From a virus (taxonomy: Duplodnaviria > Heunggongvirae > Uroviricota > Caudoviricetes), in the IMG/VR virus record IMGVR_UViG_2718218139_000007: a DNA stretch of 64,000 nt; one strand, given 5' to 3'. This document shows positions 3,001-6,000 of the stretch, piece after piece. A program made the position numbers. Positions within the stretch are counted from its first letter, which is position 1. Each line of letters starts with the position of its first letter.

Positions 3001-6000
3001 CAGCTTCAGTGAAAAAGATATTCAGCCTCTTTATCTGCGAAAAAGTATTTTACTGGTAAAGAAAGGTAATCCTAAAAATATCCGGAGTATTGACGACCTG
3101 ACCAGACCTGGGATTGGCGTAATTGTTAATGATGGTGGTGGTACCAGTAATACATCAGGCACTGGCGTCTGGGAAGATATTGCCGGACGTAAAGGGAATA
3201 TAGAAACTGTCGCCGCAATCCGAAAAAATATTATTTTATATGCGCCCAATAGCGGAACTGCACGTAAGGCTCTTGAGAATCAGCCTGGAGCAGATGTCTG
3301 GATAACCTGGGCTGACTGGGCAGCCAGTAATCCAGAAATTGGTGATGTCGTGGAAATAGCGCCAGACTACGTGATATGGCGTGATATGAACATTACAGTA
3401 CGTCAGGATGCAAATGATGAAACCCGTCGATTTGCAGAATGGCTACAAACCGATGAAGCGGCGCCTGCATTCAAAAAATATGGCTGGACCAGGAAAGGCA
3501 CTTGACATCCTCGTCCTTCAGGACGTGGATTCTTTTTCCGGATGCCGCGCCAGCGGCATGTAGGGGCAGCTCACAAAACGGAAAAAATTGTACGCTAAGC
3601 CTCGCCAGGTGAACTGAATTCATTCCGATATGGGAATTCCCATATCGGGCGAAAACGGTTTGCTGTAACGGCAGAGTTAAGTAGGATTGCTGCGGGTGCT
3701 TGAGGCTATCTGCCTCGGGCATGAACACCAACGGCAGATAGATAAAAGCCCCACCCGACTATAAATCGAAGTGAGGCCCCTATATGCTCGTCACATATAG
3801 ATTGCCTCTTACGGACCGAAAGGTCAAGGAGAAGCAGGCTATGAAGCAGCAAAAGGCGATGTTAATCGCCCTGATCGTCATCTGTTTAACCGTCATAGTG
3901 ACGGCACTGGTAACGAGGAAAGACCTCTGCGAGGTACGAATCCGAACCGGCCAGACGGAGGTCGCTGTCTTCACAGCTTACGAACCTGAGGAGTAAGAGA
4001 CCAGGCGGGGGAGAAATCCCTCGCCACCTCTGATGTGTCAGGCATCCTCAACGCACCCGCACTTAACCCGCTTCGGCGGGTTTTTTGTTGTTTATTTTTA
4101 GTGGGGTTGATCTTTTTGATTGCGTCATCACGTTTGCCTGTAAAGGCATCGCGGATGTATTGAACAGATAATGAGCCAACATAGAATCAAAAATTCTTAA
4201 GTAGCGCGCAGGGAGAAGATGGATGGACCCCAAACAGGGGAGTGCTATTTATCTGGAAGGATTCTGTTGATGAAAATCGAAGAATTACGTGAAATTTTTA
4301 GTGAAGATGGCCTCTATACTGTGCGCGTTGAGAATGGCGCTATTGTCAGCCACTGCCGTATTAAATGTTTACAGTCTCAACAAAGGAAGAGTGGAGCTGC
4401 GTTAATTCATTTGGTGGATGGGCTTGTGACGGATGGTTTTATTTTGCGTGCAAATGAATTTGTCACATCGTTGTCGTCTCTGAAAGAAGCTGGGATTAAG
4501 GCTGGTTTTTTTGCTTTTGAAGATGAGTGAATTCATCTACAATTCAGCGCAGGGCTGAACCCCTGTTGAGTAACACTGTGCCACCGGAGAAAGCCGATGG
4601 CGCAAAATTCCAGATCACACAATTCTGATAATCTCGCTGTCTTTGCCAGCAGGCACGGGCGGCATTCGCACGCATTCAAATCTGACTGGTTCCAGCATGA
4701 TCCATGCACTGAAGAACAGGCTGAATGGATAATTCAGTGTTACCGCAGGCGCGGATACGAGGTTAAGAAAGCCCTCAGCCTCGATTATCGTCACTGGATA
4801 ATCTCCGTCAGGCTTCCTTACTCCGAACGCCCACCGTGTCCGTCCCGCACATTCCAGCAACGAATCTGGAGGTAACGTGCGGGTATTACTTCGACCTGTT
4901 CTGGTACCGGAACTCGGGCTGGTGGTCCTTAAGCCAGGTCGTGAATCCATGCAGGTATTTCACAATCCTCGAGTGCTGGTGGAGCCGGAACCAAAAAGCA
5001 TGCGTAATCTGCCGTCCGGGGTCGTTCCTGCCGTTCGCCAGCCGCTGGCGGAGGATAAATCATTACTGCCGTTTTTCAGTAACGAACGGGTGATTCGTGC
5101 TGCTGGTGGTGCTGGTGCATTGTCTGACTGGCTGTTGCGCCATATTAAATCCTGCCAGTGGCCACACGGCGATTATCATCACAGTGAAACCGTCATACAT
5201 CGTTACGGTACCGGCGCAATGGTGTTGTGCTGGCACTGCGACAACCAGTTGCGTGACCAGACATCCGAATCACTCGAGCAACTTGCTCATCAAAACCTGT
5301 CAGCATGGATGATTGACGTCATCGGTCACGCAATAAGCGGTACGCAGGAGCGTGAATTATCTCTGGCTGAATTATCCTGGTGGGCGGTCCGCAATCAGGT
5401 GGCGGACGCGCTACCGGAAGCGGTATTACGTCGTTCGCTGGGGTTGCGTGCGGAAAAAATCCGCTCAATGTACCGTGAAAGTGACATCGTACCGGGAGAG
5501 CAGACCGCCACCAGCATACTGAAGCAGCGCACAAAAAATCTTGCGCCGCTGCCTCACGCCCACCAGCAAAACCCGCCACAGGAAAAGACGGTGGTCAGCA
5601 TTGCCGTTGATCCGGAGTCACCGGCTCAGTATCTCCAGCGCCAGAAACCACAACGGGAAGAGATGCCTGTATACACGCGCTGGGTAAAAACGCAGAAATG
5701 CATGACGTGCGGTAATCAGGCAGATGATCCGCATCACATCATTGGTCATGGACTGGGAGGGATGGGAACAAAGGCTGATGATTTGTTTGTTATTCCGCTG
5801 TGCCGTAAATGTCATAACGAACTGCACGCCGGGGTAAAAGATTTTGAAGAAAAACACGGCAGCCAGCTGTTGTTGCTGATTCGTTTTTTAATGCACGCGA
5901 GAAATTCGGGTGTCCTGAAGTGGAAAGCATGAATGACTGAACGGATAGAATTTGTTTTGCCTTACCCGCCGACGGTGAATACCTACTGGCGACGTCATGG

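Follow-up and report, generated by a model that had tools for sequence, protein, structure and literature searches.

Is the Hok-like reading frame of a prophage part of a complete toxin-antitoxin system, and does a perfect palindrome next to it belong to that system? These questions are raised by a locus in a 64,000-nucleotide stretch of DNA (the window, to which all coordinates refer) from a virus of the Caudoviricetes, IMG/VR record IMGVR_UViG_2718218139_000007. Our analysis indicates that positions 3694-4087, together with their promoter, are very probably a conventional hok/mok/sok type I cassette that belongs to the hokD/hokW subgroup and appears intact, with the palindrome lying outside the cassette as a relic of a KilA-N gene. 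The cassette itself holds nothing new and is already named hokD in RefSeq; the side result on the palindrome may matter more than the toxin-antitoxin locus.

The hok cassette and its prophage

The toxin gene hok (3841-3996, plus strand) encodes a 51-aa peptide of the HokD/HokW type. This peptide covers the whole Pfam profile HOK_GEF (PF01848; E = 1.2e-23, 82.9 bits versus a cut-off of 22), and its RefSeq protein, WP_000813254.1, carries the name 'toxin HokD'. The gene is contained in, and in frame with, a mok-like frame of 70 codons (3784-3996, plus strand), which begins with an ATG at 3784 and has a GAGG Shine-Dalgarno sequence 7 nt upstream of this start. The equivalent ORF is annotated mokW in phage 933W and 'gef phage maintenance protein' in PPompW phages. 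Judged by Rfam match, fold, and homology, the full-length hok mRNA would extend from 3694 to 4087 (plus strand); all RNA coordinates of the locus given here were transferred by homology. In an Rfam search, the leader matched RF01794 at 3694-3843 (103.9 bits, gathering score 59, E = 4e-24) over model positions 1-157 of 157. A terminator scan found an intrinsic terminator for this mRNA at 4065-4088 (plus strand), whose hairpin and T-run (4065-4082) consist of a 7-bp stem with five G-C pairs, a 4-nt loop, and the T-run. The first-pass annotation had described a hok/mok-type type I toxin locus within a prophage, with a 51-aa Hok/Gef-family peptide, an in-frame upstream mok-like frame, and a strong terminator. 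The Pfam and Rfam matches, the mok frame, and the terminator uphold this description, and all the sequence features it listed, including the palindrome and a 9-bp repeat, are present at their coordinates.

The whole hok RNA folds with -165 kcal/mol (z = -6.4), and its 5' end pairs with its 3' end. The same architecture was recovered in an alignment fold of 10 relatives, in which the hairpins are retained. At the 5' end, an inverted repeat, the Rfam structure line, and the alignment fold delimit a hairpin at 3694-3752 (plus strand) that includes the tac element (3694-3705). The 9-bp inverted repeat CTATCTGCC (3706-3714) / GGCAGATAG (3733-3741), for which a part in the mRNA fold had been considered, forms the conserved upper stem of this hairpin according to both Rfam and the alignment fold. 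It forms the core of a more extended, imperfect repeat that pairs 3695-3714 with 3733-3752, and the upper stem (alignment pairs 13-21 with 41-49) exhibits one compensatory change and several G-U changes. The fbi element, the partner of the 5' tac, was placed at 4046-4061 (plus strand; CCTCAACGCACCC followed by GCA) through complementarity and fold. Positions 3691-3699 are perfectly complementary to 4053-4061 over 9 nt, and in the minimum-free-energy fold (z = -6.4) tac and fbi form a 12-bp closing helix. All 12 pairs are kept in the 10 relatives, where they are invariant or differ by G-U changes only; the helix is therefore an instance of conservation, not of covariation. In all 10 aligned relatives the fbi element is invariant, even in one whose hok coding region has diverged. 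Matches at 4000-4086 that resembled isrK and rsmX scored below the gathering scores and reflect only the 3' hairpins and the terminator of hok.

The host element is a paa-carrying lambdoid prophage (PPompW / Sp9-like) of pathogenic E. coli, and the cassette is located between its replication module and its nin/Q region. Directly upstream, and outside the toxin-antitoxin locus, lies the accessory cargo gene paa (2747-3505, plus strand; AcfC-family adhesin Paa/AdfO), a 252-aa ORF with a Pfam match to SBP_bac_11 (5.5e-34). Its counterpart in O55:H7 RM12579 and in the PPompW phages is annotated 'AcfC family adhesin Paa', and the region is identical; positions 3480-4087 of the window match the paa-hokD junction of these genomes with 100% identity. 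In the matching E. coli and PPompW records, the toxin gene is annotated hokD or gef. At least 80% of positions 3400-4300 are covered in 554 of 5426 complete E. coli genomes, and the 161 nt around the palindrome (3540-3700) are present in 576 complete E. coli genomes. The identical allele is retained in hundreds of genomes from several serotypes, EHEC as well as EPEC.

The window's Hok shares its RefSeq name, HokD, with hokD (relF) of the Qin prophage of E. coli K-12. The downstream neighbours in the window (a rem-like ORF, DUF968/ydfU, rusA, and Q) also resemble those of Qin. The K-12 hokD gene reportedly follows relBE and is without upstream regulatory elements, a description that goes back to Pedersen and Gerdes in 1999. 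Unlike K-12 hokD as so described, the window contains a complete leader together with the mok and sok regions.

The hokW-mokW-sokW locus of the Stx2 phages 933W and Sakai prophage 5 belongs to the same family, and both it and the window's locus are found in lambdoid prophage of EHEC. The two loci have in common the leader, the in-frame mok, an antisense sok over the mok start (predicted in the window), tac/fbi, and the terminator. The window and the 933W hokW locus are 85.7% identical in DNA sequence over 95% of the length, and 47 of 51 Hok residues (92%) are identical to HokW of 933W. In 933W, however, the locus is located near the right genome end, whereas the window's cassette occupies a different genomic slot; the left flank in 933W differs and is without the palindrome, and homology with the window begins at 3653. 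HokW is toxic and is counteracted by sokW RNA; deletion of hokW halves Sp5 phage release, with a role after mitomycin C (PMC8621323).

A predicted antisense sok and the probable activity of the cassette

The coordinates of a Sok-like antisense gene (3744-3827, minus strand) were transferred from the annotated sokW misc_RNA of 933W. An antisense sok had so far been a supposition for this locus; the alignment to sokW supplies its counterpart, a predicted RNA of ~49 nt running from 3792 to 3744 on the minus strand. This RNA would begin with an unpaired 5' tail, complementary to the mok start region, and continue into a terminator hairpin followed by UUUU. Compared to the 933W type, the body of Sok has a 21-22-nt deletion in the terminator region, and the terminator stem therefore differs from that type. 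A promoter on the minus strand is not outright absent: the -35 element TTGACC (3827-3822) and the 17-nt spacer are good, but the -10 element CAATCT (3804-3799) is weak, a 1-nt deletion having removed the first T of the TAACCT or TAATCT found in relatives. The putative hok promoter (3660-3687, plus strand) also appears weak. Read from the sequence at the distance expected from the homology-derived 5' end, it would consist of TTGCTG at 3660-3665, a 16-nt spacer, and TAGGAT at 3682-3687, where relatives have TAGAAT. A consensus promoter scan of 3400-4300 called neither the hok nor the sok promoter, and both were placed by homology.

Because both -10 elements are weaker than those of the relatives and neither promoter passes the scan, the locus could be attenuated or silent. 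Instead of an active toxin-antitoxin pair, it might be a silent or decayed copy of the kind seen at several hok loci in the E. coli K-12 chromosome; the shortening of Sok by 21-22 nt points in the same direction. We consider this unlikely. Both reading frames, hok and mok, have remained intact and conserved, as have their Shine-Dalgarno sequences, the tac and fbi elements, and the terminator. The Sok segment, although shortened, retains a predicted fold with a 5' tail and a terminator hairpin, and the allele has been kept identical across the many genomes and serotypes listed above. The weakened -10 elements of both hok and sok, together with the shortened Sok, give the allele practical interest: as a natural variant, it could help to show how the two RNAs are balanced against each other.

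For an active cassette, we used the mechanism worked out for the founding member of the family, hok/sok (parB) on plasmid R1, and took the vocabulary and the steps from its description (PMC9841398). The Rfam sok/hok-leader model can be aligned to the window along its whole length. The R1 system, however, is plasmid-borne and acts through post-segregational killing, whereas the window's system is prophage-borne, and Hok of the HokW type is only ~44% identical to R1 Hok (PMC8621323). The steps have been established for R1 hok/sok and for hokW-sokW; for the window we infer them from the conserved anatomy. A stable full-length hok mRNA would be made from the weak promoter, and its 5' tac would pair with the 3' fbi. 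This pairing would hide the mok ribosome-binding site, and the full-length RNA would therefore be neither translated nor bound by Sok. After slow trimming at the 3' end, the mRNA would refold and expose the mok start, where the short and unstable antisense Sok (minus strand, ~3792 to 3744) would pair with it, and the duplex would be destroyed. Replenishment of Sok would end when the element is lost or when the prophage is induced in a RecA-dependent manner. Without this replenishment, mok would be translated, hok would be translated through its coupling to mok, and the 51-aa Hok peptide would damage the inner membrane. The prophage would probably benefit from assistance in lysis and phage release, an effect shown for hokW-sokW, from its own stabilisation, or from both.

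A palindrome and a probable KilA-N relic upstream of hok

The perfect 24-bp palindrome CCGATATGGGAATTCCCATATCGG (3625-3648) occurs only once in the 64-kb window, also in a search tolerating 3 mismatches, and 100 shuffles produced none. As single-stranded DNA it forms a hairpin of -10.2 kcal/mol (z = -4.2). The first-pass annotation had correctly called it exact but had assigned it to the leader. By homology (start of the Rfam model, tac), the hok transcript begins at ~3694; the palindrome is therefore upstream of the hok promoter, at about -69 to -46 from the inferred start of the mRNA.

The palindrome appears to be the surviving core of a KilA-N (BstA-like) gene that has otherwise been lost; this gene would have occupied the slot in an ancestor, antisense to hok. 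Translation and alignment to intact genes place the putative relic, of ~45 nt, at 3609-3657 on the minus strand. It reads F S P D M G I P I S E * I Q and thus contains an in-frame stop. In the alignment to intact KilA-N genes (E. coli KY1497, Rouxiella) and to longer relics, the window has CGGAATGAATTCAGTTCA versus CGGAGTTAATTCAATCA. Within the window, the flanks that support the relic are short (~16 nt to one side, ~6 nt to the other), and the reading rests partly on clearer and longer relics upstream of hok in other phages. In E. coli KY1497, an intact KilA-N/BstA-like gene is located in the same slot, antisense to and immediately upstream of hok, and in phage vB_EcoS-666R9 a KilA-N/BstA-like gene and hok lie within ~350 bp of each other. 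When two KilA-N proteins were used as tblastn queries against the whole window, the only match was the palindrome-encoded peptide (best E = 0.054), and by this search the window encodes no KilA-N or BstA protein. The alignment with this E value continued from the palindrome into 3694-3766; a KilA-N remnant in that stretch was rejected because it is the conserved hok leader.

The palindrome core in KilA-N genes

The core of the palindrome, GATATGGGAATTCCCATATC, is embedded in KilA-N genes across bacterial phyla, where it encodes the peptide DMGIPIS. Searches with the same 20-mer found it in at least 120 viral contigs and, across many phyla, in 82 stretches of species genomes. Within its KilA-N subfamily the palindrome is nearly universal, and it occupies codons ~58-65 of the KilA-N domain. 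The GGGAATTCCC core reads D-M-G-I-P-I-S in the KilA-N sense; the minus strand of the window agrees with this reading and has KilA-N-like flanking codons. Many of the carrier proteins join a KilA-N domain (4.8e-27) to a BstA C-terminal domain (PADLOC, 3.5e-21), and other carriers are KilA-N proteins with an ANT-like, non-BstA C-terminus.

These occurrences raise the possibility, which we regard as real but rather doubtful, that the palindrome is not a neutral relic but a still working cis-acting hairpin or palindromic site recognised by KilA-N-domain proteins, and aba-like where these proteins are BstA-like. The prophage might then keep it to escape or titrate the KilA-N/BstA-like abortive-infection proteins of co-resident prophages. 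Put more broadly, and equally tentatively, the palindrome may be a copy of a widespread, so far undescribed nucleic-acid element, a stem-loop or palindrome whose apex, GGGAATTCCC, is invariant and whose arms covary. This element would be recognised by KilA-N-domain proteins and, for the BstA-like members, would serve as self-immunity or as a decoy against abortive infection. Such an element would be written into one KilA-N subfamily (DMGIPIS or ETGIPVS), from cyanobacteria to enterobacterial phages, and copies would also survive in, or have been captured by, non-coding DNA of temperate and virulent phages. If this were true, the palindrome beside hok would be a retained anti-defence site, and not junk.

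Several observations favour a working element. In 32 KilA-N alleles, sampled by protein similarity, synonymous sites in the core are frozen: D is encoded by GAT in 31/31, P by CCC in 32/32, and I by ATA in 31/31 cases, whereas every other conserved residue in these alleles uses 2-6 codons. The ETGIPVS alleles carry CGAAACGGGAATTCCCGTTTCG, with compensatory changes in the arms, and among 22 alleles five pairs have changed on both sides, a count reached by 0 of 500 shuffles. Non-coding copies extend to palindromes of 30-36 nt, in which the outer arms are unrelated. Virulent phages of the genus Dhillonvirus carry the palindrome and a second arm class beside an ori-like region, a KilA-N/BstA-like gene is present in 139 of the 5426 E. 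coli genomes, and many carriers, as described above, combine the KilA-N and BstA domains. Many non-coding copies of a second palindrome class are flanked by A-runs and T-runs; these were not counted as evidence because they look like ordinary bidirectional terminators.

Roi of phage HK022 reportedly binds within its own gene (work of Clerget and Boccard from 1996). A precedent for a working element is BstA, whose own locus contains a DNA element that neutralises it (PMC8585504). In palindrome-carrier proteins, the C-terminal domain that often matches the PADLOC BstA model also matches BTP1 BstA (29% identity), and the BstA/aba system and the carrier genes alike have a short nucleic-acid element within their own locus and constraint at the DNA level. 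However, the mapped BTP1 aba is a different sequence of 63 bp at the start of the gene, where it spans the start codon; its repeats (CCCGCC) are direct, not inverted, and reportedly each aba element is specific to its cognate BstA (PMC8585504). In contrast, the palindrome is an inverted repeat at codons ~58-65 and occurs also in the KilA-N proteins with the ANT-like C-terminus, and a comparison with the published BTP1 aba found no sequence relation. The BstA/aba system also needs the BstA protein at the locus, whereas the window has only the ~45-nt relic with its in-frame stop.

Other observations likewise argue against a working element. Decay is evident in some of the hok-upstream copies, which have lost 1 nt or have an outer mismatch, and of the five tandem copies in phage Teewinot, four are no more than half-palindromes. 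The identical E. coli copies, more than 550 in number, represent a single lineage and therefore give no independent evidence of selection. Taken together, the frozen synonymous sites, the arm variants, the non-coding copies, and the BstA-like carriers make the motif a testable candidate for a KilA-N recognition target. The KilA-N domain is very common in phages, and its function is poorly understood; the motif is also a candidate clue to how phages might evade the KilA-N/BstA-like class of defence.

Two further readings tie the palindrome to hok or its neighbour. The first-pass annotation had proposed a protein-binding site or a part of the mRNA fold-back structure; for the palindrome, neither proposal is supported, as it lies upstream of the transcript and does not look like a site specific to hok. 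That it acts as an operator or upstream regulatory site of the hok promoter is very improbable. A perfect palindrome centred ~58 bp upstream of the inferred start is in a position usable by activators or repressors; however, it is absent from the experimentally validated hokW-sokW type (933W) and from 65 of the 77 viral loci that encode an identical Hok. Among the loci that do carry it, the distance to the promoter varies by 18 bp, through an insertion in another lineage, and the helical phase between palindrome and promoter is therefore not kept. The same sequence is also found inside KilA-N genes and in many contexts unrelated to hok. We give just as little credence to the palindrome as a part of the hok leader or fold-back, or as a terminator or insulator of transcription from paa. 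In favour of these readings, any transcript crossing it would contain a 10-bp hairpin with a 4-nt loop, and in other lambdoid prophages it immediately precedes an intrinsic terminator where the nin region begins. Against them, the Rfam model and tac begin at 3694, neither strand has a T-run after the palindrome, and the terminator scan passed over it. A terminator-like hairpin of paa itself lies on the 3' side of that gene at 3512-3525, and the terminator that accompanies the palindrome elsewhere is a separate hairpin.

Permissive Rfam searches, covering the palindrome as found in the window and within one intact KilA-N gene, returned no family, and neither did a search of ten palindrome-bearing loci at the gathering threshold return one for the palindrome. 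A match to the MS2 operator hairpin was at chance level (11.6 bits versus a gathering score of 40, E = 2.2). Full-text searches of a literature library found no relevant paper for the palindrome sequence and three variants, and none combining KilA-N with a palindrome. The sequence is not known to fit the consensus of an E. coli regulator or an IS or REP element.

Upstream of the palindrome, the segment GCATGTAGGGGC at 3556-3567 is identical to the 5' tail of Sok in 11 of 12 positions, and these 12 nt are 92% complementary to the mok start region. We judged this Sok-like match to be due to chance or to an unrelated element; the segment can alternatively be placed within an unrelated 39-nt element that is common to plasmids, beside IS fragments.

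The hok/mok/sok cassette

The open reading frame at 3841-3996 encodes MKQQKAMLIALIVICLTVIVTALVTRKDLCEVRIRTGQTEVAVFTAYEPEE, which matched Pfam HOK_GEF (E = 1.2e-23) and is contained, in frame, within a mok-like frame of 70 codons that starts at the ATG at 3784. A terminator scan returned a hairpin with a T-run at 4065-4082. The first-pass annotation had read this region as a hok/mok-type type I toxin locus with a Hok/Gef-family peptide, an in-frame mok-like frame and a terminator; this reading was right, and all three elements were borne out. Its putative Sok promoter aside, the locus has every defining feature of the hok/sok family that can be judged from sequence. 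It is already annotated, and hence already known: RefSeq names the hok gene 'type I toxin-antitoxin system toxin HokD', and phage records list the mok-hok frame as 'gef, phage maintenance protein'. From 3480 to 4087, the window is 100% identical to the paa-hokD junction (paa being an AcfC-family adhesin gene) of both E. coli O55:H7 RM12579 and the EHEC 'PPompW' lambdoid prophages. At least 80% of window 3400-4300 is covered in 554 of 5426 complete E. coli genomes, and the 161 nt of 3540-3700 were found in 576 genomes, in 551 at 99% identity or more.

The genes are arranged in the order replication protein P, DUF1627, a fimbrial pseudogene, paa, hok, two small ORFs, a DUF968/HNH-like protein, RusA, and Q; this puts the cassette at the beginning of a lambdoid prophage's nin-like region. 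The DUF968/HNH-like protein (4877-5932, 351 aa) is YdfU-like, with matches to the DUF968 domain and to HNHc_6, a putative HNH nuclease; in the reference prophages, RusA and Q come after this gene. These surroundings match those of hokD in Qin-like prophages. From the hok terminator to the following ORF (4088-4220), the sequence is unlike every PPompW-type reference, the references being about 53 bp shorter there, and that ORF (4219-4530, 103 aa) had no Pfam or NCBIfam match. Window 4060-4560 was present in one piece in none of the 5426 complete E. coli genomes; the best match had 85% coverage in two pieces. By these comparisons, a mosaic junction lies directly 3' of the hok terminator.

Rfam model RF01794, which carries the name 'sok' yet models the hok leader strand, matched the plus strand at 3694-3843 over its whole length with 103.9 bits (gathering score 59). 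By the start of this match, the hok mRNA has its 5' end at about 3694. At 3706-3714 and 3733-3741, the two 9-bp arms are exact; the imperfect inverted repeat of which they are the core is longer (3695-3714 with 3733-3752). They are the upper stem of the first hairpin of the model (3694-3752), and the proposal that they could be part of the mRNA fold was right. A putative weak hok promoter can be read at the right distance at 3660-3687 on the plus strand (TTGCTG, 16 nt, TAGGAT); it scores too low to pass the consensus scan, and the -10 of the relatives is TAGAAT.

When 3694-4087 was folded as a single RNA, the 5' GGGUGCUUGAGG closed on CCUCAACGCACCC near the 3' end, with a fold energy of -165 kcal/mol (z = -6.4 versus shuffles). 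At the 5' end, TGCGGGTGC (3691-3699) is perfectly complementary to GCACCCGCA (4053-4061). This pairing of the ends corresponds to the lock between the 5' tac and 3' fbi elements known for the hok mRNA of plasmid R1 (PMC9841398). In an alignment of 10 distinct relatives, 12 tac/fbi pairs were invariant or showed only G-U changes, even in one allele with a strongly diverged hok coding region, and 16 other predicted pairs showed compensatory changes. Across the hairpin and terminator of the hok 3' UTR (4005-4086), Rfam gave a sub-threshold match to isrK (30.5 bits, gathering score 50; E = 2.6e-4), which is probably due to the common architecture of a hairpin plus terminator and not to a separate small RNA.

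The annotated mokW/hokW/sokW locus of phage 933W is 85.7% identical over 95% of the locus in the window. Pairwise alignment carried the sokW coordinates over to 3792->3744 on the minus strand, and by homology the antisense gene is present. In the predicted fold, this 49-nt Sok-like segment starts with an unpaired 5' tail, GACGAGCAUAUAGGGG, and ends in a hairpin and UUUU; the tail is complementary to the mok start region. The putative sok promoter upstream on the minus strand has a -35 TTGACC (3827-3822), a 17-nt spacer, and a -10 CAATCT (3804-3799), in which the first T of the relatives' TAACCT or TAATCT is lost. The antisense RNA that had been postulated has its homologous segment, and the search for a minus-strand promoter found a -35 and a spacer, but a -10 that departs from that of the relatives. 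In the Sok terminator region (3753-3776), the window allele also lacks 21-22 nt relative to the 933W type, giving a different, shorter terminator stem. Relative to most relatives, then, the hok -10 is weaker (TAGGAT versus TAGAAT), the sok -10 is altered, and the Sok terminator stem is replaced; both partners may be attenuated together.

The closest studied relative of the Hok peptide is HokW of the hokW-sokW locus in Sakai prophage 5 (47/51 identical residues). HokW halts growth, and sokW RNA, transcribed from its own promoter, prevents this arrest, with RNase III and Hfq contributing (PMC8621323). Mitomycin C reduces sokW and increases HokW, an effect that depends on RecA, and deletion of hokW-sokW halves the release of phage Sp5 (PMC8621323). 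With its components in place, the conserved anatomy suggests that the locus in the window would run the same cycle. The full-length hok mRNA would be produced in a locked form, and slow trimming at its 3' end would let it refold; Sok would then pair with the mok start, and the duplex would be degraded. Once Sok was exhausted, mok and then hok would be translated, and Hok would damage the membrane.

A palindrome outside the cassette

The sequence CCGATATGGGAATTCCCATATCGG at 3625-3648 is a perfect 24-nt palindrome, exactly as first described. It is single-copy in the 64-kb window even when up to three mismatches are allowed, and no copy appeared in shuffles. It had been assigned to the hok leader, as possibly part of the mRNA fold-back or a protein-binding site; this assignment is wrong. 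The palindrome lies at about -69 to -46 of the inferred transcription start, upstream of the -35, and is outside the hok/mok/sok cassette. Homology to 933W starts at 3653, immediately to the right of the palindrome, in whose place this validated hokW locus has unrelated coding sequence.

To sample loci without bias, we took 80 viral contigs with the identical 51-aa Hok, 77 of which had a recognisable leader. The palindrome was absent within 700 bp upstream of the leader in 65 of the 77. The remaining loci had a perfect copy (four), a copy with one mismatch (five) or three mismatches (two), or a degenerate copy (one). The mismatch falls in the outermost pair in the one-mismatch copies examined (O104:H4 type), and two upstream sequences in the identical-Hok list have a 1-nt deletion in one arm. 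In one lineage, an insertion has moved the palindrome and promoter 18 bp further apart. On neither strand is the palindrome followed by a T-run, and a terminator-like hairpin belonging to paa itself lies at 3512-3525.

In the interval from paa to the palindrome, some 39-50 nt, GGGGCAGCTCACAAAACGGAAAAAATTGTACGCTAAGCC (3549-3601; compare 2001-2039 of locus L005), occur also on E. coli plasmids at 85-95% identity beside IS1 and IS100 fragments, and the paa cargo segment may end here. Of the first 12 nt of this stretch (3556-3567), 11 match the Sok 5' tail, probably by chance.

Constraint on the palindrome within KilA-N genes

The 18-mer core of the palindrome (ATATGGGAATTCCCAT AT) occurs in at least 120 IMG/VR contigs; among those listed, only 73 are hok-linked. 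In a one-genome-per-species collection (596 Gb), the 20-mer GATATGGGAATTCCCATATC (3627-3646) was found in 82 stretches, against about 0.5 expected by chance. These come from cyanobacteria, Bacteroidota, Chloroflexota, Patescibacteria, Spirochaetes, Firmicutes, and alpha-, beta-, and gamma-proteobacteria, and the G+C content of the loci ranges from 29 to 70%. About half of the stretches are in frame within KilA-N-domain genes (Pfam PF04383, 4.8e-27), where the 20-mer encodes D-M-G-I-P-I-S, about 15 residues ahead of a QGTWVHP motif.

We sampled this KilA-N subfamily by protein similarity using back-translated degenerate patterns, which are codon-neutral, and obtained 32 distinct alleles. Outside the motif, conserved residues use 2-6 synonymous codons each, and two other conserved prolines of the same domain use four each. 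Within it, D is GAT in 31/31 alleles, G is only GGA or GGG, the first I is ATT in 30/32, P is CCC in 32/32, and the second I is ATA in 31/31. The motif codons are frozen while other conserved codons vary; the constraint is therefore at the nucleotide level.

An allele encoding E-T-G-I-P-V-S has the sequence CGAAACGGGAATTCCCGTTTCG, with two compensatory arm changes; this second arm type (class 2) was found in 44 viral contigs, partly within KilA-N genes. In coding copies, the palindrome runs on average 2 more pairs past the 20-mer with differing bases (0.33 expected by chance), and non-coding copies extend to 30-44 nt with unrelated outer arms. Across 22 alleles, 81% of cells were paired versus 33-53% with slid partners, and the double changes, at 5 pairs, were matched in number by none of 500 shuffles. 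The centre varies only in its four middle bases (AATT, GATT, AATC, or GATC). In these alignments, it is the symmetry of the palindrome that is conserved. With an apex of invariant GGG/CCC and lower arms that covary, the element fits a candidate stem-loop, in RNA or DNA, better than a classical duplex operator. No Rfam family corresponds to the KilA-N-embedded palindrome, and the literature searched had no paper with its sequence, an absence that is not proof of novelty.

In some KilA-N genes, the GIP palindrome motif occurs two or three times in tandem: KKGIPVF..GMGIPID..ETGIPVS at about 2002 of a 244-kb IMG/VR contig (L466), and DMGIPIP..DMGIPIS in locus L107. The element appears to have been duplicated within coding sequence.

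Origin and possible role of the copy beside hok

Many palindrome-bearing genes encode products of about 255-275 aa with a KilA-N domain and a C-terminal domain similar to BstA, the abortive-infection protein of prophage BTP1 (PADLOC BstA model, 3.5e-21; 29% identity to BTP1 BstA over about 120 aa). One such gene (WP_000200358.1) is present in 139 of 5426 E. coli genomes. In E. coli KY1497 (3353-4774 of its locus), a KilA-N/BstA-like gene lies antisense, immediately upstream of hok and downstream of replication-module accessory genes, in the slot that paa and the palindrome hold in the window. No more than about 350 bp separates the two genes in phage vB_EcoS-666R9. Translated from 3657 to 3609, the minus strand of the window gives F S P D M G I P I S E * I Q, where an intact KilA-N gene has L S R D M G I P I S E L I Q; CGGAATGAATTCAGTTCA, in the flank, can be aligned to CGGAGTTAATTCAATCA, and other palindromes upstream of hok retain longer, clearer relics of ...ISELIQSFKG. 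The palindrome in the window is thus quite probably the core left over from a KilA-N gene lost through deletion or replacement.

The back-to-back arrangement of a KilA-N/BstA-like gene and a hok locus was seen in KY1497 and in phages vB_EcoS-613R10 and vB_EcoS-666R9. The KY1497 hok ORF is annotated at only 41 aa and looks truncated. Possibly, a putative defence gene and a type I toxin-antitoxin locus form a pair in these cases.

The palindrome beside hok may well be a neutral relic, a reading we hold a little short of probable. Certain copies upstream of hok are decaying, and the hundreds of identical copies in E. coli represent a single lineage, so that their number does not speak for retained function. 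We consider it rather unlikely that the copy keeps a function, for example as a putative KilA-N-binding site or as an element like aba. BstA blocks phage DNA replication and is switched off by aba, a DNA element within its own locus (PMC8585504), which is a precedent for such a role. However, the aba of BTP1 is a different sequence, located at the gene start, with direct repeats, and specific to its own BstA (PMC8585504). The palindrome is also present in KilA-N/ANT proteins. Judged by sequence, it is neither part of the hok leader, nor an intrinsic terminator, nor the published aba. Its presence in virulent Dhillonvirus phages, in an ori-like region directly after the helicase-primase gene, speaks for a function. 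In other lambdoid prophages, it lies just ahead of a terminator where the nin region begins. The probability left is spread over minor rivals.

In the Dhillonvirus ori-like region, the palindrome is accompanied by GCGGGACA iterons, GGCAACCAATG repeats, and an AT-rich stretch (SECphi18, L185 2200-2620; Teewinot, L186 2660-3150; further loci L007, L032, and L102). Teewinot has five tandem 53-bp units; only one has the full palindrome, and the other four of the five copies are half-palindromes, which counts against a retained function. Some Dhillonvirus-like contigs have both arm classes, with class 2 about 335 bp away. The gp06 ORF of SECphi18, annotated over part of this region, may be spurious.

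In the other lambdoid prophages, the early accessory genes meet the nin genes (ybcN, ninE, etc.) at a conserved block. It consists, in order, of TACCATACAAGC, the palindrome (with a GGGGATTCCC centre), GAC.., and an intrinsic terminator (L183 and L184 at about 5000-5065; IMG/VR loci L126-L181). The gene that often precedes this block presumably encodes a C-terminus resembling a cytosine methyltransferase. The flank of the block may itself be a KilA-N relic (ISLVW* versus ISELVQ).
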